A DNA stretch of 64,000 bases, taken from assembly GCA_001794055.1 (NCBI GenBank), contig MGJB01000017.1, positions 21,339 through 85,338 on the forward strand, read 5' to 3'. The position numbers and the translations under genes were made by a program. Positions 3,501-54,130 of this stretch are shown piece by piece. This stretch comes from Candidatus Yanofskybacteria bacterium RIFCSPHIGHO2_01_FULL_41_26 (lineage in GTDB: Bacteria; Patescibacteriota; Minisyncoccia; 2-02-FULL-40-12; GWA2-44-9). The notes below the pieces were generated by a model. It saw only the letters and a list, made by a program, of their open reading frames with translations. It was not told where the DNA came from and did not search any database. How positions within the stretch are numbered: position 1 is the stretch's first letter; each line of letters starts with the position of its first letter.

Positions 3501-4802
3501 TTAGTTCAGAAGGCCGTTGATATCCGAAATGATTATTCTTTTCTGTTCCATTGAATCTCTGTCGCGAATAGTGACCGTACCATCTTCAAGCGTTTGGAAA
3601 TCAACTGTAATACAGACTGGCGTGCCAATTTCATCCTGCGAATAGTAGCGTTTTCCGATATTCCCTCGGTCGTCCCAGACAACAGAAAATTCTTTTCGGA
3701 GCGAGTCGTAAATTTCTTTAGCTTTTGAGACCAACTCCGGTTTGTTTTTTAATAACGGAAATACGGCCGCTTTGTAGGGCGCAAGTTTTGGATGGAGCTT
3801 CAGAACCACGCGGTCTTCCTCTTCGCAGTAAGCATCGAGTAAGAAAAATAGTAATGCCCGGTCAACTCCACCCGATGTTTCGATCACCCACGGAATAAAA
3901 CGCTCTTTAGTTTCCGGATCAAAATAAGACAAGTCCTGTCCGGAAAATTTACTGTGTCGCGACAAATCCCAATCGGAGCGATCGTGAATACCTTCGCATT
4001 CTCTCCAGCCAAACGGGGTCTCGTATTCGATGTCCCATGCTTCTCGAGCATAGTGCGCTAATTCTTCCGAATCTTGTTTGCGAAAATGAATCCTGTCTTT
4101 ATCCATGCCCAATGATAAATACCATTTCATCCTCAATTCTTTCCAATAACCAAACCATCTTTTCCATTCTTGTTGATCAGGTTTTATGTACCACTGAAGT
4201 TCCATCTGTTCAAATTCTCTAGATCGATATGTAAAATTTCCGGGGGTAATTTCATTGCGAAAGGCCTTGCCGATTTGAGCAATTCCGAATGGAATTTTTG
4301 GATGCATAGAATCAATAATATTTTTGAAATTAACATGAACGCCTTGTGTAATCTCTCCCCTCAAATAGACGCTCGACTTTTCACTCTCAACAACCCCAAG
4401 TTTTGCTTCAACTAACAAATTGAATTTTTTGGGCTCAGTCCAGTCAATGTTTTCATTTCTTTTTTTGTGCCATTCTTCATGGTGTTTTTTTTCTTCGTTT
4501 TGATCGGACCTTACTCTTTCGTGGCAAACTTTGCACTCAATGAGTGGATCATTAAATGTCTCGGTATGGCCGGAACTCTGCCAAACTTTCGGATTCATCA
4601 GAATAGCGGCTTGGATTCCAAAAATATTTTCATTTGATTTCACAACGCTGTCCCACCACGACTGTTTTAGATTGTGCTTAAGCTCAGCGCCCAACGGTCC
4701 GTAATCCCATGTGCCACGCAATCCGCCATAAATCTCCGACCCCGGAAATATGAACCCGCGCCGCTTGCATAGTGAAACTATTTTTTCCAATTTATCAGAC
4801 AT
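3501..4802 (-). CDS. glyQS: glycyl-tRNA synthetase, alpha2 dimeric type
   Basis: 433 aa. N-terminus KRRGFIFPGSEIYGGLRGTWDYGPLG and class II motifs are typical of GlyQS. Confidence 0.9.
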   Translation of the reverse strand: MSDKLEKIVSLCKRRGFIFPGSEIYGGLRGTWDYGPLGAELKHNLKQSWWDSVVKSNENIFGIQAAILMNPKVWQSSGHTETFNDPLIECKVCHERVRSDQNEEKKHHEEWHKKRNENIDWTEPKKFNLLVEAKLGVVESEKSSVYLRGEITQGVHVNFKNIIDSMHPKIPFGIAQIGKAFRNEITPGNFTYRSREFEQMELQWYIKPDQQEWKRWFGYWKELRMKWYLSLGMDKDRIHFRKQDSEELAHYAREAWDIEYETPFGWRECEGIHDRSDWDLSRHSKFSGQDLSYFDPETKERFIPWVIETSGGVDRALLFFLLDAYCEEEDRVVLKLHPKLAPYKAAVFPLLKNKPELVSKAKEIYDSLRKEFSVVWDDRGNIGKRYYSQDEIGTPVCITVDFQTLEDGTVTIRDRDSMEQKRIIISDINGLLN

Positions 4803-4835: not shown

Positions 4836-6584
4836 TTACTGCACTACCCCTTCTCCTGAACGATCGACAAGATCGTTGCTAGAAATATCCCGGACAGGAA
4901 CAATTATATTCTGTTTGGTAAAAGTATCCACCCCTGAAAGTTTGGAATCTTTTACTAGAAAGACTGGGCTTCCTGTTTGGCTGGTTGACGGATTTATACT
5001 TATCTGAAAACTTGCCTCATATTTAGATCCGGTCACGCCAACTCCTTGCGGTAAAACTCCGGGATTCCAAGCCACTTCGGAAATATTTTTATTGAATGTC
5101 GGTTCCGGCTGTCCCGAACCGACACTTACAATGCTTCTCCAATTTACGCCCGCTGACAATAAGCCGGTTATTTTAACTCCGCTCATATCATTTCCAGGGT
5201 TGGTAATCTGCCAATGAATCGTAAAAGAGGTCTCCTTTCCAACTTCCGGCGGCAAAGGGCCGGACGAACCAAAAGCTGTATCATTATAGTAAGCCGTCTG
5301 TTTTAGCGTCGGCTGAGTAGATATTTTAGTAACCAGATTGGATTCCGCAAAAATTTCATCCCCACCAATGTCGGACGGCACATTCGGAGTACTTAATCTT
5401 GTTGAAGCCCTAACAAAAAGATTTTTGGAACCGGTTGAGCCAGAAGGAATACCGTCCTTAAGCTTAATCCTGAAAGATACCTGCCCCTTTTTGTTGGGAG
5501 ACAGATTTGCAAAATCCGATATCGTGCTTGCGTTCCATAAAATTGTACCATTTGAACTGTCGTAATAACCGCCTTTCGTATCTAAGCTTGAAATGTCATA
5601 CATGTCCCCTTCCAATTTGATTAGCAAGTTTACTCCAATAAGATTGTAGTTGGAACTATTGAAATATTTGATTGTATAATTTAAATCATCGCCGGCAAAA
5701 GCAGAGTAATCAGAAGAATCGTTTACCGAGATCGCCGTACCCAATAAAGCATTGGCAACAACTGATGAAGTTTCGGATTTTTCATAATCAATATATTGAT
5801 CGCCTATTTTTCTTTTTAAAGCTACGGAGATATTTTTTGTTTCTCCTTCTTTTCCATTCAAAAGTCCGCTAATGCTTATCCTTCCGCCGTTACCCTTTTT
5901 GAGAACAGGAATGACCCAAACATAATTTTCCGTGTTTGGCGAAGGAGATGATTTCTGAACACTAAACCCATCAGGATACTTAAACTCAAATCTCAAATCA
6001 TAAATATCACCGTTGGACTCGTTTCTGTAATCCAACACATAACTGATCGCTTGGCCGGGAACTGAATTAGGAGGAGCAGATAAAGTGAGAGACACCGGCA
6101 GACTAATCATCGTGGTAGAGAGAGAAGCAGTCTTTTCAAAAACAGTTTTTAAACTTCCCGCCCCAAAAGACAGATCAATTTTTGCTGTTTTGATATTTCC
6201 CCTGTTGCCCACCAAAAAAGCGGTGAAATCTTTTTCTCCGGACTGACCAACGGCCAACTGGTCTAAAGTGAATATTTCTGAAAATGTATCTTTTCCGTCT
6301 AAGACAGGCCCGCCTCCAGATGGCAAAACAACCGAACCGTCAGGATAAGTAAACTTGAAACTAAGGCTGTTCAGGTTCAGCTTGGTGGTATTTGAATACT
6401 TAACCTTATAAACAACCTCGTCTCCCACAGACGCCTGGGTCGGACCTTCTATTTCCAGTTTGACCCCGGATTCAGAAAAAGACGGGCTTCCAAACCAAAA
6501 CGAAAGGAAACTGACGATAGCCAGCAACAAAGCCAGTAAGATCAGCCATTTCAAAAGTTTATTGTGTGAATATAAAAATTCCAT
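4836..6584 (-). CDS. large membrane-anchored surface protein with repeated beta-rich domains (DUF11/CARDB-like)
   Basis: 582 aa with N-terminal TM/signal. Ser/Thr/Asn/Gly-rich repetitive Ig-like segments. Confidence 0.55.
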   Translation of the reverse strand: MEFLYSHNKLLKWLILLALLLAIVSFLSFWFGSPSFSESGVKLEIEGPTQASVGDEVVYKVKYSNTTKLNLNSLSFKFTYPDGSVVLPSGGGPVLDGKDTFSEIFTLDQLAVGQSGEKDFTAFLVGNRGNIKTAKIDLSFGAGSLKTVFEKTASLSTTMISLPVSLTLSAPPNSVPGQAISYVLDYRNESNGDIYDLRFEFKYPDGFSVQKSSPSPNTENYVWVIPVLKKGNGGRISISGLLNGKEGETKNISVALKRKIGDQYIDYEKSETSSVVANALLGTAISVNDSSDYSAFAGDDLNYTIKYFNSSNYNLIGVNLLIKLEGDMYDISSLDTKGGYYDSSNGTILWNASTISDFANLSPNKKGQVSFRIKLKDGIPSGSTGSKNLFVRASTRLSTPNVPSDIGGDEIFAESNLVTKISTQPTLKQTAYYNDTAFGSSGPLPPEVGKETSFTIHWQITNPGNDMSGVKITGLLSAGVNWRSIVSVGSGQPEPTFNKNISEVAWNPGVLPQGVGVTGSKYEASFQISINPSTSQTGSPVFLVKDSKLSGVDTFTKQNIIVPVRDISSNDLVDRSGEGVVQ

Positions 6585-6594
6585 CTGCTCAATC

Positions 6595-7197
6595 TTATCT
6601 TAACACAGAATGGAGAAAATTTAATGACTTTAATCTAAATCCGGCGTTGTATTCAAAAGCGTCATCCAGCATTGTAAATCCGGGCCGAGTTGCGTCAAAA
6701 GAAGCTGAAGCGGCAATTTCGGGAGAATACCCGAGCAATCCCAGCAAAGCAAACTGTTTTTGTCTTAAAAAAGTTAAGCTCGGCTCAAACCGGTTTAACT
6801 TATCAAACAGACCGGTCATAAAATTCCAAAGTTTTTCATCTTTATCCATTTCGGGAACCATCTTATCAATCACTTCGGAGAAAAAACTCGCAACCGCCAA
6901 AGAAAGAATCGAGCTTTTCAAATCCCGGTATGAATTCTCCGACTGGGCTCCGGCAATTACCGGCAAGGACCGCCCTTGTATAAGATCAAACTCCACAAGG
7001 TTTAAGGTATCTAAATGCATGGCTTGAATAGAACTGTGTTTTAAAATACTTTTAGCAATGGCGGTAAGCTTCCCAAGTTCCTGTGTATAGCAAGTCACGA
7101 ACTGATCGAATTCGTTGGTGTTTTGCTTTTTTATAATTATCGCCTTAATCAGCATTTGATATTTGAAACTTTGATATATTGACAGTTTTGCCGCCAT
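6595..7197 (-). CDS. recO: DNA repair protein RecO-like
   Basis: 200 aa. N-terminal OB-fold-like region and C-terminal helical region resemble short RecO. Confidence 0.5.
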   Translation of the reverse strand: MAAKLSIYQSFKYQMLIKAIIIKKQNTNEFDQFVTCYTQELGKLTAIAKSILKHSSIQAMHLDTLNLVEFDLIQGRSLPVIAGAQSENSYRDLKSSILSLAVASFFSEVIDKMVPEMDKDEKLWNFMTGLFDKLNRFEPSLTFLRQKQFALLGLLGYSPEIAASASFDATRPGFTMLDDAFEYNAGFRLKSLNFLHSVLR

Positions 7198-8274: not shown

Positions 8275-8874
8275 TTATTCCGCCATTTTTAATAATTCTT
8301 CCAAAACGACCGAGAGTTCGACAACTCCGTCTTCTTCGGAAATGTGGCCTTTATTTTTCAGAACGATAATCTTCGCGTTTAAATTATTTCTAAACAATTC
8401 CGAGTTAATTAAAGAAACATAGGGGTCATTATCCGAAGCAATCAAGACAAAATTATTTGTATGCTGTTTTGTTTTCTCAAAATCAATTGGTGTGTTTATC
8501 CACTCATCGGCTATTTCTCTAGTATAAGTTTCGTCCCAGACTCCATCAGTTAAATTAAACCATCCGGCTACGAATACTACTCCGCCAACTTTTTGGTCGT
8601 CAGGCAATTGCTCCAAGTACCTCATTATCGCCTGGCAACCGATGCTATGACCAACAAAGTAAGTATTCTCGTCAGTCAACCCTACAACTTCGGACAGCTT
8701 TCTCAACCAAGATTTTATAGTAGGCTTATCTGTGTCGGGCATCTCCGGAATCATTACTTCGAATCCTCTCGTCTCTAATTCGTTCTTAAGCCAAACCAGC
8801 CACTCCTCGTTTGGCCAACCTCCCCAACCGTGAATTATGAGCACTCGTTTTTTCATTTCCTCAGTCCAATCCAA
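8275..8874 (-). CDS. YdeN/RBBP9-family alpha/beta serine hydrolase
   Basis: 199 aa. VGHSIGC nucleophile elbow. Size and layout match the Ser_hydrolase family. Start probably at the internal Met (about 8856), overlapping the ileS stop. Confidence 0.7.
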   Translation of the reverse strand: MDWTEEMKKRVLIIHGWGGWPNEEWLVWLKNELETRGFEVMIPEMPDTDKPTIKSWLRKLSEVVGLTDENTYFVGHSIGCQAIMRYLEQLPDDQKVGGVVFVAGWFNLTDGVWDETYTREIADEWINTPIDFEKTKQHTNNFVLIASDNDPYVSLINSELFRNNLNAKIIVLKNKGHISEEDGVVELSVVLEELLKMAE

Positions 8875-11800
8875 ATTTTACGTTGCGGAGCAAGTTCAAA
8901 TTCTTTCTCAATATCATACGCTTTTTCGTCATGAGGCCCGTTGCGAAATTCTGAAAGCAAGACTTCCTTTTTTATTTCGTCCGACCATTGGCGAATAGCC
9001 TCTGATATTTCTTTGTCATCACTGTGCCATTGGCCAAATATTTCATCATCAACTTTATATTTGGCTTCTTTTCTCATGTCCTGTATTTGTCGCATCAATT
9101 CTCTGGCATAACCCTCATAGACAAGCGTCTGGTCAAGTTCGATATTCAAACAAACCAACTCCTTCTGACTTTTATCATAAACAATTTCTTTTACATTGAG
9201 TTCTTCTTTAACCAAAATCTCCAGATCTTTCGGAAATTCGTTTGAGAGCCCCAGATGTACTGCCCTTAACGGCTGGCGGACTTTGATTTGTTTTTCTTTT
9301 CTTTGGGCTAAACCCAATGTAACAATGTTTTTAATTTCTTCCATCTGCTTCTCCAGTTCTTTGTTTATCTGTTTCTTGTTTACTTGAGGCCAATCGTGAA
9401 GGTGTACGCTTTCAGTCCCCGAGGACCGTCCTCGGTGGAGGCGCATATGGATGTCCTCTGCCATAAAAGGAATGAACGGGGCGATAACTTTGGCAATCTC
9501 CAAAAGCAAAAATCTTAAAAGCCCTAGGGCCTCTTTTCTTTTTCTTGAACGCCTGAGCCACCAGTTAGAAAGGTCCTCCGCAACAAATTTTTCGATCGTT
9601 TTTGCCGCCGAAGTCGGATCGTATTTATCCAAGCCGTCTGATACTTCTCCTAGCAATCTGTTTAATTTTGACAGTATCCACCTATCGAGCAGATTCAGAT
9701 TTTTGCCTTTAGTATCGTGGAAAGAACCGAATTCTCCTTTTCCGTATAATTCATAAAATCTTAAACAATTGTCAAGCGTACTGAAAAATCCTTTCTGTTT
9801 ATCTTCTATTTCTCTAGGGATTACGCTTTTACTTTCACCTATCGTCATTGACGACAAAAAATACCACCTCAACACATCAACGCCGTATTTATCCATAAAT
9901 TCCATGACCGGCACATAATTTCCTTTTGACTTGGACATTTTGGCGCCTTTTTCATCAAGCGTATGCCCAAGCACCATTACATTTTTATATGGCGCACCTT
10001 TTTCAAGCAGAGTTGATATGGCAAGAAGCGTAAAAAACCATCCTCTTGTTTGATCTATCGCTTCAACTATAAAGTCAGCGGGGAATTGCTCTTTGGATAT
10101 TTTTTTATTATCGAAGGGCCAATGCCACTGGGCATAAGGCATAGCGCCGGAATCAAACCAGACATCAATTAAATCAGGCACTTTTTTCATATCTGAACCG
10201 CATTTAGAACACTTGAGAACAACGCTGTCTATATACGGCCGGTGCAAATCCAACTCACCCAATTCGTTGCGCGGAATTTTAGACCAATTAAGGTTTTTAA
10301 TCTCAGCAATGCGCGGATACCATTGTGCCTTCCCTTCTTTATTCAATATCTGATCTCCGGTCAATCCTTCAGCGATTGTGTTCAACAACCAAAGAGGATC
10401 GCCATGGCTCACGATTAAAATATTTTTATTTTTATATTTTGCTTCGAGTTCAAACATAAATTCCGTCATGCGTTTACGAACATCATTTAAACTTTCGGCA
10501 TCGCGCTGGCGTGAATCCATAGTTCGATCTCCTCCGCCACCTGCGATATAACGAGATACCGGCTTACCATCCCAACCAGAAGCAGATCGATACTCATGTA
10601 ATCGTTCGTCAATCACAACTTTTTGATGCAGTATTTTGCCGGCAATTGAGGCTGTTTCGTGAGTTCGAATGAACGGCGAACTAAAAATATAATCAACCCC
10701 CTCCAGTTTTAACAGTTCAATGGACTTCTCAACCATTTTTTCACCTTCGGAGGTAAGGTGGTAAGCATCGTTTTCCTGACGAGTGTTCACGATCGCATCG
10801 CCCCCTTCATTCCGAGTAGAAAAGCCGTGGCGCATAATGTAATATGTATTTTGGGGACTAACTGAAAGTTTCTCGAGTTCTTTAACCGAACCGATCGTAG
10901 TTTTGTTGTCACACCCGCCCGACCGAACACTCTCGGTAGTTCGAACGGGTTGATTGCATTCCCAAATCGGCAATGGAGTCCCCCAATATCTTTCTCTCGA
11001 AAAAGCCCAGTCCTTCCCCTCTTTCAACCACTGGCCAAATCTGCCTTCTTTAATATGTTCGGGAATCCAATTTGTCTTCCGGTTGTTTTCAATAAGTTCT
11101 TTGTTAACCGCCGACATTTTGATGAACCATGATTCTTTGGCGTAATACAGAAGCGGGGTGTCACATCTCCAGCAAAAAGGATAATCATGTTCATAATTGA
11201 AAGTAATAAGTAGTAAGTGGTTAGTAGTAAGGTAGTCGAGAATTAAGTCCTCCGTTTCTTTGGCTTTTACATATTTCCGGTCAAGACCATGGCCAATATT
11301 TATAAATCTGCCCCGTTCATCAACCGTGTGAAATTTGGGAAGTCCTAATTTTGTGCCAAGGTTGTAATCGTCCTCTCCGTACATGACCGCAGTATGAACC
11401 ACACCCGTTCCGTCTTCGGTAGAAACGAAATCGGCATCGTAAATTCTGTATGATTTATCTGATTTAAGTTTTTCGACACTAAACAACGGTTCATATTCTA
11501 GACCAAGAAGATCAGAACCTTTGTAGGTTGTATTTAGTATTTCGTATTTAGTATCTTTGAGAACTCTCCCAACAGCACTTTCGGCTAATATAAAAATTTC
11601 ATCTCCAACTTTTACTGCTGTATAACCAATATCTTTCCCGACAGCCAAGGCAACGTTGCCAGGCAATGTCCACGGAGTTGTCGTCCAAGCAAGTACATAA
11701 AGGTTCGACCTTAAATCTCCAACAAGATTAGACCTTGCAGAATTTTTAACTTTAAATTTAACAAAAACAGATTTATCTGTAACTGTCTTGTATCCCTGGG

Positions 11801-12368
11801 CAACTTCGTGAGATGATAACGGCGTTCCACAGCGTGTGCAGAAAGGCACGACCCGATGAGCCAAATACAATAATTTCCTATCCCAGATCTTTTTTATTAT
11901 CGCCCAGAGCGATTCAATGTATTGGTTTTTGTAAGTAATGTACGGATCATTCATATCGAGCCAGAAGCCCATTTTTTTGGTCATCTGTTCCCATTCGTTC
12001 TTGTATTTCCAAACGCTCTCCTTGGCCTTCTTGTTGAATTTGTCTATCCCATATGTTTCAATATCTTTTTTGTTTTTAAAGCCAAGCTCTTTCTCAACCT
12101 CTATTTCCACCGGCAGGCCGTGAGTATCCCAGCCGGCTTTGCGCAAGACAAAATATCCGCGCATTGTTTTGTAACGGCCAAAAACATCTTTATAGATCCG
12201 AGTTAGAAAGTGTCCGACATGGGGCAGTCCATTGGCGGTCGGCGGACCTTCAAAAAAAACAAAACGCTTCGCTTTTTGACGGTTTTCCAGAGATTTCTTA
12301 AAAATATTATTATCTCTCCAAAAGTCCAGTATCTTCTTTTCTTTATCGACAAAATTAGAATCAGCCAT
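8853..12368 (-). CDS. ileS: isoleucyl-tRNA synthetase with inserted histidine-phosphatase-like domain
   Basis: 1171 aa. PPTANGLPHVGH (HIGH), WTTTPWTLPGN editing domain and KMSKSKGN are present. Residues about 472-715 form an extra domain with RHG, SSPFIRTHETA and VSHGDP motifs. Confidence 0.9.
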   Translation of the reverse strand: MADSNFVDKEKKILDFWRDNNIFKKSLENRQKAKRFVFFEGPPTANGLPHVGHFLTRIYKDVFGRYKTMRGYFVLRKAGWDTHGLPVEIEVEKELGFKNKKDIETYGIDKFNKKAKESVWKYKNEWEQMTKKMGFWLDMNDPYITYKNQYIESLWAIIKKIWDRKLLYLAHRVVPFCTRCGTPLSSHEVAQGYKTVTDKSVFVKFKVKNSARSNLVGDLRSNLYVLAWTTTPWTLPGNVALAVGKDIGYTAVKVGDEIFILAESAVGRVLKDTKYEILNTTYKGSDLLGLEYEPLFSVEKLKSDKSYRIYDADFVSTEDGTGVVHTAVMYGEDDYNLGTKLGLPKFHTVDERGRFINIGHGLDRKYVKAKETEDLILDYLTTNHLLLITFNYEHDYPFCWRCDTPLLYYAKESWFIKMSAVNKELIENNRKTNWIPEHIKEGRFGQWLKEGKDWAFSRERYWGTPLPIWECNQPVRTTESVRSGGCDNKTTIGSVKELEKLSVSPQNTYYIMRHGFSTRNEGGDAIVNTRQENDAYHLTSEGEKMVEKSIELLKLEGVDYIFSSPFIRTHETASIAGKILHQKVVIDERLHEYRSASGWDGKPVSRYIAGGGGDRTMDSRQRDAESLNDVRKRMTEFMFELEAKYKNKNILIVSHGDPLWLLNTIAEGLTGDQILNKEGKAQWYPRIAEIKNLNWSKIPRNELGELDLHRPYIDSVVLKCSKCGSDMKKVPDLIDVWFDSGAMPYAQWHWPFDNKKISKEQFPADFIVEAIDQTRGWFFTLLAISTLLEKGAPYKNVMVLGHTLDEKGAKMSKSKGNYVPVMEFMDKYGVDVLRWYFLSSMTIGESKSVIPREIEDKQKGFFSTLDNCLRFYELYGKGEFGSFHDTKGKNLNLLDRWILSKLNRLLGEVSDGLDKYDPTSAAKTIEKFVAEDLSNWWLRRSRKRKEALGLLRFLLLEIAKVIAPFIPFMAEDIHMRLHRGRSSGTESVHLHDWPQVNKKQINKELEKQMEEIKNIVTLGLAQRKEKQIKVRQPLRAVHLGLSNEFPKDLEILVKEELNVKEIVYDKSQKELVCLNIELDQTLVYEGYARELMRQIQDMRKEAKYKVDDEIFGQWHSDDKEISEAIRQWSDEIKKEVLLSEFRNGPHDEKAYDIEKEFELAPQRKIWIGLRK

Positions 12369-20891: not shown

Positions 20892-21233
20892 ATGCCGAGG
20901 GTAAAGAGAGGAACAACTGCAAATGCCAGAAGAAAAAGATTGCTGAAACATGCAAAGGGTTTTATGTGGACCCGAAACACCAAATACCGCCAAGCCAAAG
21001 AAGGCCTACTCCACGCCTGGTCATTCCAATTTGCCGACAGAAAGAAAAAGAAACGGACAATGCGTAATCTCTGGACTATTAAAATAAATGCAGCCGCAAG
21101 AGAAAACGGCCTTACCTACTCCAAACTCATCAACCAACTCAAAAAAGCAAATATAGAATTAGACCGAAAGATACTCTCCGACCTCGCCGCCAACAACCCG
21201 GAAGTATTCAAAAAAATAGTATCGAAACTCTAA
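20892..21233 (+). CDS. rplT: 50S ribosomal protein L20
   Basis: 113 aa. MPRVKRGTTANARRKRLLKHAKGF is typical of L20. Confidence 0.9.
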   Translation: MPRVKRGTTANARRKRLLKHAKGFMWTRNTKYRQAKEGLLHAWSFQFADRKKKKRTMRNLWTIKINAAARENGLTYSKLINQLKKANIELDRKILSDLAANNPEVFKKIVSKL

Positions 21234-21303
21234 CAAGTTGAGCTAGCTAGGGGTGAATCTAAATTAAAACCTACTTTTTATGAAGTAGGTTTTAATTTAT
21301 AAC

Positions 21304-21340
21304 CCTGCAGGGCCAATAGAGAACATTGGAAAACTTTGTT
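21304..21340. repeat. repeat motif A, copy 1 (CAGGGCCAATAGAGAACATTGGAAAACTTTGTT)
   Basis: 34 nt identical to 22273-22308. Contains CCAAT...ATTGG inverted repeat. Confidence 0.7.
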
Positions 21341-21439
21341 CGGTCAAATTTACGGGTATTTTATTAAAGACCCGACTTTCTTTGAATTTAACACGATTTT
21401 TAGAAATTAAAAAGCGACCGAGATCTCGTGCCGCTTATA

Positions 21440-21805
21440 CTAATGAATGCTTTTATGTTTGCCTTGTGCAATTTCAATTAGATACTGATGAAGTTCAGTT
21501 GGCGGCATACATTCATAATCAGGATAAATTTTTATTATCCTATCATATAATTCTTGATCTTCTCTAATCATGCCAATCAATTCTCTTTGATTGAGCGTTT
21601 CGACAGGCCATCTTTGCAATTCATCGACATGTTCTTTAAACCAAGAAGTTATCTTAGAACCGTGTTCAGTAAATTCCCTTAAAAATCGTAAACCTTCTTT
21701 GGACTGCTCCTTGGTTAACTTATTCTTTTTTATACTCCATCTTATTAGAATTACCCCTAATGCGATCAGCACCGATACGACAACATATATGACATTCATG
21801 GCCAC
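21440..21805 (-). CDS. membrane-anchored hypothetical protein (cargo of cassette 1)
   Basis: 121 aa with N-terminal TM helix. Confidence 0.4.
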   Translation of the reverse strand: MAMNVIYVVVSVLIALGVILIRWSIKKNKLTKEQSKEGLRFLREFTEHGSKITSWFKEHVDELQRWPVETLNQRELIGMIREDQELYDRIIKIYPDYECMPPTELHQYLIEIAQGKHKSIH

Positions 21806-21911
21806 ATCCTTTAATCAAAAAGCTGAAAATACTATACAATACTTTCGGTATTATTGCAAAAAAATTGGGGCTAACCAAAAAACCAGCATTTCTGCTTATT
21901 TTTCGTCAAAA

Positions 21912-21936
21912 GTTTTCCATTCCCCTTGGCCCCTAG
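21912..21936. repeat. repeat motif B, copy 1 (AAAGTTTTCCATTCCCCTTGG), imperfect inverted copy of motif A
   Basis: 21 nt identical to 22894-22916. Its reverse complement GGGCCAAGGGGAATGGAAAACTTT resembles motif A. Confidence 0.65.
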
Positions 21937-22187
21937 ATAACTGGCTTACCAAACTTAATTAGATTTAATTTCTTTTCACGTCTCCACCCTTTGATTTGTG
22001 CTTCTCTTTTAAGTGCCCGGGATTTATCATTAAACTTCTCGGTATGTAAAATTTTCACTACTTTTCTTGCTCTAGTATAACGAGCTCCTCTACCAACTTG
22101 GTGCTCGAGAAATCTTCTTTCAACATCTTTGGCAATACCGGTATAAAAAGTGCCATCTCCACATTGAATTAAATATACAAAATACAT
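21933..22187 (-). CDS. GIY-YIG nuclease domain protein
   Basis: 84 aa. MYFVYLIQCGDGTFYTGIAKDVERRFLEH is a GIY-YIG motif (UPF0213-like). Confidence 0.75.
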   Translation of the reverse strand: MYFVYLIQCGDGTFYTGIAKDVERRFLEHQVGRGARYTRARKVVKILHTEKFNDKSRALKREAQIKGWRREKKLNLIKFGKPVI

Positions 22188-22272
22188 AATGATTTTAAGA
22201 AATGCCCTTCGATAAACTCAGGGCACTTCTCCAGCTCTGCTCGCCAAAAATGGCTCGCACTGAGCTTGTCGA

Positions 22273-22308
22273 AGTGCAGGGCCAATAGAGAACATTGGAA
22301 AACTTTGT
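22273..22308. repeat. repeat motif A, copy 2
   Basis: Identical 34 nt to copy 1. Confidence 0.7.
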
Positions 22309-22413
22309 TAGCTGATATTTATATGTATTTTATACAAAATCCATTAGAACTAAAATTTGACATAATTACATTATAGTGATAATATACTGGAACTTAGCAA
22401 AAGGAGGACTGAC

Positions 22414-22866
22414 GTGGCTAGCAGAGACCGAGTCGCAAAGCTCTTTGAAACCCTACAAGTAAGCAAGCAATTCGATGCAATAATCGAAAATACTTCCTCT
22501 GTTATGAGAGATAAGTATAGCACTGAATGTCTTGAGGATGGTATTGATCCAGCCGAATTTCATCGAATTGTTACAGAACCAGTAGGACTTCTGAAAGACG
22601 GCCTACTTGAACTAGTTGCACAAATTTATACAGAAATTTTTACAGACGAAGAAGTTGACGAATTGGTTTCTATTTATTCGTCACCTACGTTCCAAAGATT
22701 GTTGGAACTTACGCCCGAGATTCACAAACGAACAATGACCTTTGTTGTTGATCGTATGGACGAAATCCAAGCTCAGGTAGAAGAAAAAGTCGAAGCTCTT
22801 CTTGAAACAAAGAATCCCACTACAAAACCCCGCAGATCACCGTGGGGGATGGATTCTCTGGACTGA
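22414..22866 (+). CDS. acidic hypothetical protein (cargo of cassette 2)
   Basis: 150 aa ORF preceded by AAGGAGG RBS at 22400-22406. Confidence 0.45.
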   Translation: MASRDRVAKLFETLQVSKQFDAIIENTSSVMRDKYSTECLEDGIDPAEFHRIVTEPVGLLKDGLLELVAQIYTEIFTDEEVDELVSIYSSPTFQRLLELTPEIHKRTMTFVVDRMDEIQAQVEEKVEALLETKNPTTKPRRSPWGMDSLD

Positions 22867-22893
22867 TTAATTCAGTCCTTTTTATTTGAAAGT

Positions 22894-22916
22894 TTTCCAT
22901 TCCCCTTGGGGGTCGA
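22894..22916. repeat. repeat motif B, copy 2
   Basis: Identical 21 nt core. A third degenerate copy (AAAAGTTTTCCTCATTCC) is at 22973-22992. Confidence 0.65.
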
Positions 22917-22997
22917 TAAAAACAGGAATTCGGAAAACTCTCAGTAACCTAGATTCCCTGATGATTCCTGGCTTAAAAAGTTTTCCTCATTCCACTA

Positions 22998-23072
22998 TGG
23001 CAGCGCTACGGGGAGTCGAACCCCGCTTCTATGCTTGAAAAGCATATGTCCTAACCGATAGACGATAGCGCC
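22998..23072 (-). tRNA. tRNA-Glu (anticodon TTC)
   Basis: Manual fold: acceptor GGCGCTA/TAGCGCT, anticodon loop TTTTCAA, T-arm GGGGTTCGACTCCCC, CCA encoded. Confidence 0.85.
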
Positions 23073-23129: not shown

Positions 23130-24194
23130 TTGGCAATGAAAATTTTAGGAATTGAAACCTCTTGCGACGAAACAGCGGCGTCGGTAATTGAAGTAACTGG
23201 CAAAAATGGTATTAAAGTTCTATCCAATATCATTTCCTCTCAGGTAAAACTCCATGCCAAATATGGTGGAGTGGTCCCCTCTCTTGCCGCCCGCGAACAT
23301 GTTAAAAATATTGGACATGTTTTTAACTACGCATTAAAGCAGGCCGGTCTGTTGAAGTTTGGCTTTAACAGGCTTGATCTGATTGCTGTAACCCGCGGGC
23401 CCGGCCTCGGGCCCGCTTTGTTGGTCGGTCTAACATTCGCCAAAACAATTTCCTGGCTACATCAAAAACCTATCATCGGAGTAAATCATCTTGAAGGACA
23501 CATATACAGCAACTGGCTATCGCCAGTTGCTGAAATTTCTAAAAAAGATTTTCCGGCACTTAATTTAATAGTGTCAGGCGGACACACAGAACTAGTTCTG
23601 ATGAAAGACCACGGCCAATACAAAATAATTGGAGAAACCATGGACGATGCCGCAGGAGAAGCGTTCGATAAGGTCGCCCGTCTTTTGGATCTTGGATATC
23701 CTGGCGGACCGGCCGTTTCGGCAAGAGCTGAACAATTTTCAATTTCTAATTTTCAATTTCCAATTAAATTTCCTCGGCCAATGAAAAAATCTAAAAATTT
23801 TAACTTCAGCTATTCCGGGTTGAAAACCGCCGTATTATATAAAATTAGGGAGCTGAAAAATGATGGAATCAAACTGACTGTTTCCATCATTGATGAAATA
23901 GCATACGCGTTTCAGGAGGCCGCTATTGACGTCTTAGTACAAAAAACCATACGCGCTGCAAAAGAACATAACGTTGAATCGATTTTGTTGTCGGGCGGGG
24001 TTTCGGCCAATAAATTACTTCGTTCTGAACTTAAAAAAAATGCCACCAAAATGGGTATTAAATATTTTCAACCACCGATGGAATATACAGGCGACAACGC
24101 GGCCATGATAGCAGTTGCCGGATATTTTACTTATTTAAAAAACAAAAAAACCGATTATAAATCGGTTAAAATAGATGCCAATTTGGCCATATAA
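23130..24194 (+). CDS. tsaD: tRNA N6-adenosine threonylcarbamoyltransferase
   Basis: 354 aa. KILGIETSCDETAAS and HxxGH metal motifs of Kae1/TsaD. Confidence 0.9.
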   Translation: MAMKILGIETSCDETAASVIEVTGKNGIKVLSNIISSQVKLHAKYGGVVPSLAAREHVKNIGHVFNYALKQAGLLKFGFNRLDLIAVTRGPGLGPALLVGLTFAKTISWLHQKPIIGVNHLEGHIYSNWLSPVAEISKKDFPALNLIVSGGHTELVLMKDHGQYKIIGETMDDAAGEAFDKVARLLDLGYPGGPAVSARAEQFSISNFQFPIKFPRPMKKSKNFNFSYSGLKTAVLYKIRELKNDGIKLTVSIIDEIAYAFQEAAIDVLVQKTIRAAKEHNVESILLSGGVSANKLLRSELKKNATKMGIKYFQPPMEYTGDNAAMIAVAGYFTYLKNKKTDYKSVKIDANLAI

Positions 24195-24726
24195 AGAAAA
24201 ATATCATAATCATTGACAGGGCCAATAGAACAAGCCCTATGTTCGAAATATTGACCCACAATTTTGAAGTAGGCGGAGAAACAACTCTTTCACGCTTATA
24301 GACATCTTTGTATCTTTTCGGATTAAAAACAATCTCTAATTGGCAATGGCCACACTGGACATATAGACAACCCTTGTGACGATAACCATGGGGATAGTCG
24401 ATGCAGACTTTGCCGCAATTGGAACATTTGAAAAGATAGAATCCCGAATGACCAGTCCAGCCGGGCATTGTAAAGTTTCCAACAAACAACGGCTTTGAAG
24501 TAGCTTGTTCTTTCTGCTCTCTTGGAACTAAAAAGGTTAGAAGTGTTTCTTTGTCCCTAACGAAATTGCATTCTGTGCACACACTATCACGATGCTCTCT
24601 GTGGGGGTTTTCTCTTTCCCAGTCCTCTTTGCTTATAGGATATTGTTTACCATCTTTTACTCCCGCGACTCCATTTGCATCGTGAATCGTATAGTCGTAG
24701 TCACTTGCTTTAGCACTTAAAGCCAT
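24166..24726 (-). CDS. Cys-rich zinc-ribbon protein with C-terminal TM anchor
   Basis: 186 aa. Multiple CxxC pairs (CTEC, CSNCGKVC, CGHC). C-terminal hydrophobic helix. Confidence 0.4.
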   Translation of the reverse strand: MALSAKASDYDYTIHDANGVAGVKDGKQYPISKEDWERENPHREHRDSVCTECNFVRDKETLLTFLVPREQKEQATSKPLFVGNFTMPGWTGHSGFYLFKCSNCGKVCIDYPHGYRHKGCLYVQCGHCQLEIVFNPKRYKDVYKRERVVSPPTSKLWVNISNIGLVLLALSMIMIFFFIWPNWHLF

Positions 24727-52572: not shown

Positions 52573-52647
52573 GGGCGTGTAGCTCAGTGGTAGAGCACGG
52601 TACTTATAATACCGGGGTCGGAGGCTCGATCCCTCCCACGCCCACCA
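52573..52647 (+). tRNA. tRNA with anticodon TAT (Ile, AUA-reading)
   Basis: Manual fold: GGGCGTG/CACGCCC acceptor, anticodon stem CGGTA/TACCG, loop CTTATAA, T-arm GGAGGCTCGATCCCTCC, CCA encoded. Confidence 0.7.
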
Positions 52648-54130
52648 TAATAAAACTAGACGACTTTTTTGAAGTCAATTGATGGGCGGCACGAAGTGCC
52701 GCCCATTGATTTTCCCCTGACAAATCCTCTCCGCTCGGCGCGCGCAGCCGCGCCTCGCGGTTGGCCAAAACGAGGTTCGAGCCGAAAAGTTTTTCGGCAG
52801 CAACCTTTTTCTCAAAAAGGTTGCTCTCTTGTGCGATTTTAGGCAGAGATTCTGCCTCTTTTATCCATTCCGACATCGGTTCGAGCCAGCCAGTCCGCTT
52901 TTGTTCAAAGTTGATGATTTGCTCCTCCAGCGACTTTTTCTCGCTCATAAAGTTTCGTTTCTTTTCGAGATAAGTTTCTCGTTCAATGTCCTGTTCCAAA
53001 TAGCCATCTAAAAGTCGCTGGAGTTTAACAGTGATAATTTTTACTTTAGTTTCCGATTCTTGAACAAAAGCGGTTGCGGATTGGGCGGATTCCTTTTTGT
53101 CTTTTTCAAGTATTTTATTCATCTGTTCCGCCCAATCCGGTCTCAAAGAAAATTTTTGAAGCAGAGAGGATAACTGCCGATCCAGTTCTTCCTCGCGGAC
53201 ATAAGGTTGGCTACACTGTATGTTTTTCTTGGTGCAACGATAGTAAGTATGACCTTTTTGGATTTCGGCAGTTATCATTCTTCCGCATTCTTCACAACGC
53301 AATAAATTAGTGAAGGGTTTAGCGATTTTAGGATTACCCTTTGGTTTTCCTCTCTGCTTCATTACCTCTCGGACTTTATCAAAAATTTTCTTTGAGACTA
53401 CTGGCTGGTGCTTGCCTTCATACACCTCACCCGCATAACGAAAATGTCCATAGTAAAATGGATTGGAGAGGATAAAAGAAATTCTGTCTCGGTGAAGTTT
53501 CTTGCCGCCAGAGGAGAGAATACCATGTTGCGCCAAAAAGTTTACAATATCTTCCAAACGAGAGCTGTTTTGTCCATATAGCTCAAAGGCCTTGCGAATA
53601 ATAACTGATTTCTTTTTGTCCACAACGATTGATTTAGTACGAACATCGTTTAGATAACCAACTGGCGCAAGGCCGGGATATTCTCCTCGTCTGACTTTTT
53701 GGCGCAACCCTCGTTTGGTATTCTCACTCAAATTGTCCACATAGTATTTGCTTTGCCCAAAAGCGATATTGAGCATGAACTTACCTTGGGCGGTATTTTC
53801 ATACCAAAACTGTGGAAACTTCAGGCCCGCAAGTCCACCTGTGTCCAAAAGATAAATAATCTTTCCACCATCAACAGAATTGCGCGCCAGTCTGTCAGGA
53901 TGCCAAGCCAAAATTCCGTTTGCTTCACCGCGCTCGATGCGAGCAAACATTTCGTTAAAAATCGGTCTGCCAGGAATTTTGGCCGACTGCTTTTCCACCA
54001 ACTCCTCCACTATCTCCAAATTTTCACGCTTGGCAAACTCGCGCAATTCTGTGAGTTGCGCTTCAATCGAGAGGACTTGCTTATCCTCAACATCTGTGGA
54101 TTTGCGGGCATACAAAAAGAATTTTTGCAT
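52604..54130 (-). CDS. large serine recombinase (resolvase/invertase N-domain + recombinase + zinc-ribbon + coiled coil)
   Basis: 508 aa. N-terminal YARKSTDVEDKQVLSIEAQ (catalytic Ser). RLARN motif. C-terminal CxxC...CxxC. The 3' end overlaps the tRNA 3' end. Confidence 0.85.
   Translation of the reverse strand: MQKFFLYARKSTDVEDKQVLSIEAQLTELREFAKRENLEIVEELVEKQSAKIPGRPIFNEMFARIERGEANGILAWHPDRLARNSVDGGKIIYLLDTGGLAGLKFPQFWYENTAQGKFMLNIAFGQSKYYVDNLSENTKRGLRQKVRRGEYPGLAPVGYLNDVRTKSIVVDKKKSVIIRKAFELYGQNSSRLEDIVNFLAQHGILSSGGKKLHRDRISFILSNPFYYGHFRYAGEVYEGKHQPVVSKKIFDKVREVMKQRGKPKGNPKIAKPFTNLLRCEECGRMITAEIQKGHTYYRCTKKNIQCSQPYVREEELDRQLSSLLQKFSLRPDWAEQMNKILEKDKKESAQSATAFVQESETKVKIITVKLQRLLDGYLEQDIERETYLEKKRNFMSEKKSLEEQIINFEQKRTGWLEPMSEWIKEAESLPKIAQESNLFEKKVAAEKLFGSNLVLANREARLRAPSGEDLSGENQWAALRAAHQLTSKKSSSFIMVGVGGIEPPTPVL
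52645..52779. repeat. inverted repeat X, left copy (about 135 bp, GC-rich)
   Basis: Reverse complement matches 54335-54472 with 3 mismatches. Begins within tRNA 3' end. Contains GGGCGGCAC-gaa-GTGCCGCCC palindrome. Confidence 0.8.

Follow-up and report, generated by a model that had tools for sequence, protein, structure and literature searches.

What built the short array of repeats and small genes that separates rplT from a tRNA-Glu gene in Candidatus Yanofskybacteria bacterium RIFCSPHIGHO2_01_FULL_41_26? The array lies in a stretch of 64,000 nucleotides of contig MGJB01000017.1 (positions 21,339 to 85,338), hereafter the window, in which an earlier, sequence-only reading had described two motifs, A and B, bounding two small units on either side of a GIY-YIG nuclease gene. 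It had suggested MITE-like (miniature inverted-repeat transposable element) or cassette-type mobile units, possibly mobilised by the GIY-YIG enzyme, or a repeated regulatory palindrome. Our analysis supports that interpretation in part. We consider it likely that the repeats are remnants of attachment sites and gene ends, left by large serine recombinase (LSR) elements that inserted repeatedly beside the tRNA-Glu gene.

The A motif, (T)GCAGGGCCAATAGAGAACATTGGAAAACTTTGTT of 34-35 nt, occurs in two identical copies that start at 21306 and 22275 (21304 and 22273 had been given before), and the similarity extends to 68 nt at 84% identity. The B motif, AAAGTTTTCCATTCCCCTTGG, is found at 21909-21929 and 22889-22909 (previously 21912 and 22894) and extends to 31 nt at 87% identity. 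As had been noticed, B resembles the reverse complement of A: GGCCAA...TGGAAAACTTT can be read in both, in inverted relation, with a linker of 10 nt in A and 6 nt in B, and the outer 11-mer is the same in all four copies of the two motifs. The two units are indeed of like size (625 and 636 nt), with a single open reading frame (ORF) apiece on opposite strands and the GIY-YIG gene between them, and a degenerate B stands beside the tRNA-Glu gene, at 22975-22990. Neither the gapped A pattern nor the B 20-mer occurs again within the window. With up to two mismatches, the A pattern gives four matches, two of them the exact copies, against 0.81 expected, a count reached in none of 100 shuffles, and the B 20-mer gives two matches against none expected. 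The solitary A-like half-site reported further downstream is a real 11-mer match (GGGCCAATAGA, 24219-24229; 13 nt with its flanks). It falls within a conserved ORF of 186 aa on the minus strand that overlaps the tsaD stop, in a hydrophobic stretch (residues GLVLLALS) of its 3' coding end, and is probably coincidental.

The identity of A became clear from its continuation. A conserved extension of ~35 nt, here called X, follows A, and A runs on into ~70 nt of LSR coding sequence. Eleven copies of the A core plus X align without gaps, and 10 of them encode (G)RANREHWKTLFxxIYGYFIKNP in one frame, with a stop 4-12 codons on. The Ile and Tyr codons show synonymous variation only, and variation is greatest at the third codon position (entropy 1.28; 0.74 and 0.90 at the other two). 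None of the copies has a start codon, and they are therefore 3' gene fragments. Among 1.84 billion representative proteins, a profile of the two A+X peptides of the window had 19 matches, mostly ORFs of 44-100 aa that bear the same fragment. Among the matches was a longer protein of 402 aa (P0131, E 1.7e-11), which has the Pfam domains Recombinase and Zn_ribbon_recom without the catalytic domain and whose C-terminus reads ..MVENFIWKEGNLDMVWKKPFDLVAERSISADCRANREHWKTLFNEIYGYFIRNP.. (= ..KSMVENFIWKEGNLDMVWKKPFDLVAERSISADCRANREHWKTLFNEIYGYFIRNP..). In tblastn, the first A+X copy of the window matches residues 372-395 of P0131 at 79% identity (E 1.6e-8) and the second matches residues 370-397 (E 5.4e-8); both are also matched by nhmmer. 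In the public protein sets P0127-P0145, this C-terminal fragment is annotated as hypothetical proteins of 44-100 aa in metagenome gene calls. Such ~100-nt 'RANREHWKTLF' fragments are repeatedly miscalled in public data, which is relevant to annotation.

Complete enzymes of this type were found at two of the related loci compared (designated by L numbers; the syntenic ones were found through TsaD homologues of 70-78% identity). The LSR of L028 has 502 aa and the Pfam Resolvase, Recombinase and Zn-ribbon domains, with the catalytic serine in the Resolvase domain. That of L027 has 504 aa, and its N-terminal serine motif (..VYFRVSTKKQE..) was read directly rather than by Pfam scan. Both are 68% identical to P0131 (tblastn). 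The L028 gene lies on a 127-kb contig and adjoins genes for a CHC2-zinc-finger primase and a 521-aa protein, and of the forms of the element seen, this one appears the least decayed. The integrated LSRs of both loci keep all catalytic and DNA-binding domains and stop 3-10 codons past ..HNG, and therefore lack the A+X tail. On the strength of these homologies, A+X can be assigned to the 3' coding end of an LSR gene.

When P0131 was used as a tblastn query against all loci, its fragments fell into two classes only, and both always break at residue ~372-375. The first class, residues 308/318-374, occurs once per locus and abuts the antisense 3' end of tRNA-Glu in L019, L020, L023 and L035. In these four loci residues ~315-374 are still encoded up to ..PIFHN at the tRNA (L023 keeps residues 339-368 only), and in L019 the frame reads across the breakpoint as ..KPFDLVAERPIFHN followed by GSAT... 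The second class, residues 372-398, is A+X, with one to four copies per locus in the rplT-tRNA-Glu interval, all on the same strand.

The sequences that meet at this breakpoint form three classes of junction. In the first, the host rplT terminator is followed by GCAG(G/C)GCCA and A; it is seen at the first A of the window, in L020 and in L034 (aligned GCAG(S)GCCA sites), the L034 core retaining the tRNA-type C. An analogous junction in L031 joins a terminator, to which no gene was assigned, to GCAGGGCCA and A. In the second class the LSR arm is followed by GCAGCGCCA and tRNA-Glu (L019, L020, L023, L035), and in the third by GCAGGGCCA and A (L024, L031, L011 and the internal junctions of the arrays). 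The core common to all classes is ~ATAAT(G/T)GCAG(C/G)GCCA. One fixed point is joined in these loci to host and element, to element and host, and to element and element. This is what attL-, attR- and attP-like junctions would look like if the attachment site of the element (attP) lay inside the LSR 3' end and that of the chromosome (attB) were the tRNA-Glu 3' end, attL and attR being the left and right junctions of an integrated element.

Two further arrangements were observed at other places. Upstream of infC in L019 (1045-1745), two more A+X copies on the opposite strand and one B surround a 67-aa gene; the ..GGTGGAG to which these copies are joined resembles the transfer-messenger RNA (tmRNA) of the window at its antisense 3' end (19337 onward). 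A tmRNA as second target in L019 is no more than a weak inference, a tmRNA search at the site having found none. In L034, inverted LSR 3' fragments (10939-11118 and 11881-11988) flank a segment of ~760 nt, and both are joined at the core to a tRNA-like sequence, AGTATTCTTGAA..GTTCGAAC, where no tRNA was detected. This segment may be invertible, or may mark a second target site.

Comparison of relatives shows the same interval empty, filled and rearranged. L021 has rplT, its terminator, tRNA-Glu and tsaD with 157 nt between the genes and no A, B or LSR fragment, and represents the empty site. L022 has only a 19-nt direct copy of the tRNA-Glu 3' end (GCAGCGCCAAGGGGAGTCG), which follows the rplT terminator immediately, at a distance of 165 nt from the tRNA itself, and is a near-empty site. 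By contrast with the empty site, the interval measures 2.9 kb in L019 and 4.9 kb in L020, both filled by unrelated small genes: a 155-aa ORF, a PemK toxin with its partner and a HicA-family gene with a 96-aa neighbour (hicAB; Pfam match for HicA only) in the former, and a 232-aa ORF, a EutH-family gene, ORFs of 140 and 117 aa and a hicAB-like pair in the latter. The number of units varies from one in L011 to two in the window, two plus hicAB in L019, three in L036 and in L037, and four plus the hicAB-like pair in L020, while L034 holds a minimal array of A+X, a small ORF, a B-module (described below), hicAB and an LSR 3' fragment. Every gene block has A+X at its left and B at its right, and the genes may point either way relative to them. 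The presence or absence of units, which the first reading had proposed to compare, is thus strongly polymorphic, and the rplT-tRNA-Glu interval is a hypervariable array of cassette-like units. Of the cassette-type mobile units proposed earlier, the discrete and exchangeable gene modules in a variable array are borne out; transposon-type ends are not.

The cargo genes of the window illustrate this. ORF121 and ORF150 have few homologues, in two or three relatives each and on short contigs. The ORF121 homologue of L011 (75% identity) has the same B..A boundaries and adjoins the tRNA-Glu 3' end, with neither ORF150 nor the GIY-YIG gene, and the ORF150 homologue of L012 (80% identity) follows a HemN-like gene and has no A or B on its upstream side. 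These arrangements indicate that the genes are cargo, existing with or without the repeats, and that B and A delimit the ORF121 unit as a module in its own right. The tRNA-linked array of L037 contains, in addition, ORFs of 296 and 256 aa (6212-7102 and 8599-9369), which on reading look like transposases of the insertion sequence (IS) type; in that case ordinary insertion sequences, too, gather at the hotspot. The tRNA-Glu gene of L021 (7924-7998) lies on the plus strand, opposite to that of the window, and tmRNA orientation also varies among relatives, which points to inversions around these recombinase targets.

These results can be brought together in a model (feature coordinates in Table 1). 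The rplT-tRNA-Glu interval would be an integration hotspot for small LSR-encoding integrative elements whose attP lies inside the LSR 3' coding end, at about residue 374 of a protein of ~400-500 aa, and whose attB is the tRNA-Glu 3' end, the two sharing the core ..ATAAT(G/T)GCAG(C/G)GCCA, within which the LSR would catalyse the crossover. The putative attP would span ~60 bp around ..TTTTCCATAATGGCAGGGCCAATAGAGAACATTGGAAAAC.. (..GACCAATTTTCCATAATGGCAGGGCCAATAGAGAACATTGGAAAACTTTG..), and the junction of the circular form is expected to read ..PIFHN followed by GRANREHWKTLF.... With attP inside the LSR gene, integration would split off its last ~30 codons. The A+X piece would land at the far, rplT-side end of the element, while the LSR body would read into the tRNA antisense strand. 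Repeated insertions, or recombination within the junction repeats of ~200 nt, followed by deletion of the LSR gene, would then yield a tandem array in the order A+X, cargo, B-module, decayed recombinase arm and next A+X, ending at tRNA-Glu. The tRNA-proximal LSR fragment is the best preserved, which suggests that the newest element sits next to the tRNA. The window would hold two such units, those of ORF121 and of the DUF2059 gene, as recombinase-less relics or cargo. Its left boundary, between the rplT terminator and A1, would be an attL-like junction, and its right boundary, between the arm at 22939-22997 and the tRNA, an attR-like one.

Table 1. Features of the rplT-tRNA-Glu interval and of the tRNA-Ile locus in the window
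Feature	Position	Strand	Remarks
rplT	20892-21233
rplT bidirectional terminator	21260-21299	none	17-bp perfect inverted repeat; host-side flank of left array boundary
A1	21306-21340	+	Core GCAGGGCCA plus P'-type half-site (CCAAT..ATTGGAAAACTTTGTT); same sequence as A2
A1+X	21303-21410	+	PCRANREHWKTLFGQIYGYFIKDPTFFEFNTIFRN, then stop; no start codon; apparent relic of last ~33-35 LSR codons
ORF121, unit 1 cargo	21440-21805	-	119 aa from ATG at 21799
B1	21909-21931	-	Hairpin precedes B1 on plus strand; hairpin plus B1, 21877-21931
GIY-YIG domain protein, 84 aa	21933-22187	-	Pfam PF01541, E 1.1e-17; occupies B1..A2 junction
Two inverted GC-rich mini-hairpin units	22200-22275	none	CTTCGAYAARCTCAG; upstream of GIY-YIG; indel-polymorphic
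A2	22275-22309	+
A2+X'	22272-22376	+	KCRANREHWKTLLADIYMYFIQNPLELKFDIITL, then stop; apparent second relic of LSR C-terminal codons
ORF150, unit 2 cargo	22414-22866	+	DUF2059 protein, Pfam PF09832, E 1.6e-9; own promoter
B2	22889-22911		Whole ~50-nt dyad-symmetric B-module, 22889-22938; AAAGTTTTCCATTCCCCTTGGGGGTCGATAAAAACAGGAATTCGGAAAAC
Decayed recombinase-side arm	22939-22997		Includes degenerate B' at 22975-22990; runs into tRNA 3' end
tRNA-Glu (UUC)	22998-23072	-	3' end is putative attB core, TGGCAGCGCTA on plus strand
tsaD	23130-24194
tRNA-Ile(TAT)	52573-52647	+
Intact LSR, 508 aa	52604-54130	-	Resolvase, Recombinase and Zn_ribbon_recom domains

The place of B in this model is less simple. 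B is the left arm of a dyad-symmetric module of ~50 nt, AGTTTTCCCCTCCCCTTGGCCCCTCCGAAAAAGCTGTTTTGGGAAAAC (consensus of 12 loci), present once per unit. In L019, L020 and L024 it lies 129 nt ahead of the GGAAAAC that belongs to the following A. In the window B2 is a full module, and the GIY-YIG gene truncates B1 after ..TTGGCCCC. Most modules have a hairpin before them that is predicted to act as a terminator for minus-strand transcripts. The hairpin before B1 (CAGCAGAAATGCTGG plus a T-run on the minus strand) would terminate those of the GIY-YIG gene, for example, and the same pairing of terminator and B is present in L011, L019, L024, L031 and L036. The outer motifs of the module, GTTTTCC/GGAAAAC, are those found around the core in the intact LSR 3' end (..ATTTTCCATAATGGCAGGGCCAATAGAGAACATTGGAAAAC..), and the reverse complement of B (GGGGCCAAGGGGAATGGAAAAC) resembles the antisense 3' part of tRNA-Glu (GCGCCAAGGGGAGTCGGAC in L022). 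We therefore take A and B to be half-site-like sequences of one recombinase system. The attachment sites of serine integrases have dyad symmetry, which the inverted relation of A and B would reflect. B itself may be what is left of an attL, or the element may contain a second binding site, as the minimal array of L034 suggests, or B may be an inversion product, the tRNA-Glu of L021 being inverted too. The resemblance of A to the tRNA-Glu 3' end is better explained by similarity of att core and half-site than by tRNA mimicry. The latter, in which the reverse complement of A would imitate T-arm and acceptor, was rejected: ARAGORN and Rfam gave no match, and L019 has not kept the CCAAT/ATTGG stem.

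Several observations weigh against insertion by LSR elements as the origin of the array. The tRNA-Glu locus of the window holds no cognate intact LSR, only C-terminal fragments. B is not explained by a simple attL/attR scheme, and the spacer between B and A has no significant similarity to DNA of the LSR 3' end (local alignments against shuffles, z 0-3); taken as decayed LSR DNA, it did better than its shuffles in L020 only. Neither an excised or circular form nor an element complete at both ends was found, the far ends of the L027 and L028 elements were not identified, and scans of IMG/VR with the LSR and with A-motif patterns found nothing; attP is therefore inferred rather than observed. 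LSRs normally recombine attP with attB only. Once a tRNA has attR beside it, further insertions there would call for a different route, which could be the use of pseudo-attB sites or RecA recombination within the junction repeats of ~200 nt; the swapping of cargo is compatible with the latter. Moreover, several recombinase-side arms hold hairpin insertions of 18-25 nt, across which the recombinase could probably no longer bind. For this reason most junctions are probably dead relics, and the two units of the window are most likely immobile.

An independent example of the same geometry is provided by a second locus in the window, where the only LSR gene of the 64 kb is intact and overlaps a tRNA-Ile gene. 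Its last 14 codons (..MVGVGGIEPPTPVL, then stop) are antisense to the 3' part of the tRNA. The enzyme is a paralogue (24-26% identity; 26% to the L028 enzyme), and an integrated element probably sits at this tRNA. A repeat of the tRNA-Ile 3' end, which would mark the far end of that element, was searched for in the window and not found.

Could the array still be an active cassette system? In that case an LSR encoded elsewhere would excise a unit together with a composite site of ~200 nt (B-module, arm, core, A and X) as a circle and capture it at tRNA-Glu, much as an integron does. Cargo that recurs at other places in other arrays, its homology stopping where the repeats begin (ORF121 in the window and L011, ORF232/236 in L020 and L036), would fit, as would the toxin-antitoxin pairs among the cargo, which recall chromosomal integrons, and the constant 129-nt spacing of B and A in three loci. 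A block of B, GIY-YIG gene, hairpins, A and X' is also common to the window (21890-22350) and L036 (8160-8655) at 86% identity, with different cargo on both sides and homology that stops at the outer B edge and at the end of X'. However, RecA recombination within the junction repeats explains this pattern equally well, frames are disrupted and hairpins inserted in the recombinase-side arms that adjoin A, circular junctions were not seen, and we know of no attP x attP or attP x attR reactions of LSRs. We regard active cassettes as unlikely.

Far less can be said for MITEs or mobile insertion cassettes, with A and B as terminal inverted repeats used in trans by a transposase or by the GIY-YIG enzyme. 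Inverted repeats do bound units with passenger genes, and A and B look like terminal repeats because the same motif pair (inner CCAA, outer TGGAAAACTTT) occurs in opposite orientation. However, A runs on into 70 nt of recombinase coding sequence, and the flanks, read directly, show no consistent target-site duplication, neither for unit 1 (ATAACCC before TGCAGGG..TTGGCCCC, TAGATAAC after it) nor for unit 2 (GTCGAAG before TGCAGGG..TTGGGGG, TCGATAA after it); the 5-mers ATAAC and GTCGA near the unit ends were discarded as candidates, their offsets being inconsistent. Nor are copies dispersed: in the 64 kb and in at least 20 related loci, A and B are confined to the rplT-tRNA-Glu interval and the one site upstream of infC in L019. 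The adjacent GIY-YIG gene was found only in the window and L036 and is missing from four of the six arrays examined (L011, L019, L020, L034). The co-occurrence of nuclease gene and repeat-bounded units that a homing-type mobiliser would entail was thus not seen, and the gene is a passenger in one junction, not the mobiliser. Mobility of this kind is very improbable here.

The GIY-YIG gene has neighbours of its own. GC-rich mini-hairpins (core ..CTGAGCTTGTCGAAG..) of 17-37 nt, 22-24 nt beside this gene, translate as LSLSK/FDKLS and were seen in the window (22200-22275), L008 (~1930), L036 (8490-8600), L019 (~3320) and L020 (~1015-1090 and ~4370-4420). Besides their place upstream of the GIY-YIG gene, they occupy two fixed positions within A in other genomes, and they are indel-polymorphic between strains. 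A 22-nt mini-hairpin insertion is present in L008 and L036; in L008, a strain variant of the window, it lies in the hairpin region upstream of the GIY-YIG gene. The mini-hairpins may constitute a miniature insertion family. ORF121, the cargo of unit 1, gave no family in a Pfam search, and its hydrophobic N-terminal stretch is possibly a transmembrane helix.

A regulatory palindrome, operator or structured RNA before small genes would agree with the position of B upstream of the promoters of ORF121, of ORF67 and ORF155 of L019 and of ORF51 of L012, and with the small CCAAT/ATTGG hairpin within A. It is contradicted by the repeats lying both upstream and downstream of genes in either orientation, at no constant position relative to promoters, by the loss of the CCAAT/ATTGG stem in the L019 copies, by the lack of an Rfam match and by the codon-like pattern of conservation. 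The motifs are not ubiquitous promoter elements, and the 22-nt indel gives a size difference between strains, as the sequence-only reading had asked of mobile units. We find a regulatory origin more improbable still. A classical integron, or a cluster of attC sites without integrase, is scarcely credible in spite of the array of small cassettes, the imperfect palindromic repeats between them and the toxin-antitoxin cargo: no IntI-type tyrosine recombinase was called in the flanks examined, the R''/R' signature (RYYYAAC/GTTRRRY) is lacking (after GGAAAACTTT the copies read GTTCGGT, GTTAGCT, GTTACGA, ATTCAGT etc.), the cassettes have promoters and terminators of their own and lie in both orientations, and the repeat has been shown to be LSR coding sequence. 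That a ~970-nt segment was duplicated locally in tandem and then diverged, as the spacing of the A copies (969 nt) and of the B copies (980 nt) might suggest, deserves almost no weight: the genes inside the two units are unrelated and on opposite strands, and in other genomes many different cargos lie between these repeats.

Remnants of LSR elements therefore remain our preferred explanation of the array. The mobile elements and mechanisms of gene flux of the very small genomes of the candidate phyla radiation (CPR), or Patescibacteria, are poorly described, and no account of this system in Patescibacteria came up in literature searches. The tRNA-Glu 3' end is a defined hotspot at which gene content turns over between close relatives, with a cargo that includes toxin-antitoxin pairs, a GIY-YIG nuclease, a ClpP-like protein, a EutH-family protein and DUF2059, and the footprint of the responsible enzyme family can be read in the repeats. 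Two features would be uncommon, namely a serine integrase acting at tRNA 3' ends and an attP in its own coding end, so that integration alters the C-terminus. A bolder and rather doubtful extension is that the swap of the ~30 C-terminal residues gives a switch in directionality or expression, the RANREHWKTLF..IYGYFIKNP tail being made only in the circular form and a short tRNA-antisense tail in the chromosome, and that the junction repeats could allow a serine recombinase to capture and shuffle small cassettes with promoters of their own at tRNA-Glu, in the manner of an integron, in Patescibacteria. Apart from this, tRNA-targeting LSRs with short, well-defined sites could interest genome engineers.

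The array shares traits with several known systems. Like mobile insertion cassettes and MITEs, it consists of short units with inverted-repeat ends and a passenger gene but no transposase; it differs in that target-site duplications and dispersal are lacking and the ends are not of IS type. Integron arrays and attC clusters also have small single-gene cassettes, conserved imperfect-palindromic sites and toxin-antitoxin cargo, whereas here there is no IntI and no attC signature, the genes have their own promoters and both orientations, and the site comes from an LSR gene. Also similar are the tandem accretions and integrase-less cis-mobilisable elements (CIMEs) at tRNA genes, with their degraded recombinase-less units, att-derived direct repeats and strain-variable unit number. 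Those cases involve tyrosine integrases and units of several kb, whereas the present units measure 0.4-1.2 kb, their repeat is recombinase coding sequence and each contains an inverted B-module.

The att site within a recombinase gene, the tRNA target and the gene fragment at the far end of the integrated element recall the archaeal integrases of the SSV1 (fusellovirus) type. These are tyrosine recombinases with attP inside int, and their integration at a tRNA partitions int more centrally. Here, in contrast, no more than a short C-terminal tail would be lost from a bacterial serine recombinase, whose catalytic domains are still full-length after integration (L027, L028 and the LSR at 52604-54130 of the window). 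With the LSR elements and prophages, such as phiC31, Bxb1, A118, SPbeta and the Ccr system of SCCmec, the system has in common the Resolvase, Recombinase and Zn-ribbon architecture, a specific chromosomal site, inverted motif pairs in the site halves and a recombinase gene at the element end beside the att site. A tRNA gene 3' end is, however, an unusual target for serine integrases. Unlike in those elements, attP would lie inside the 3' coding region of the LSR, integration would swap the last ~30 residues, and the host, a member of the CPR/Patescibacteria, preserves almost only recombinase-less relics in tandem arrays.

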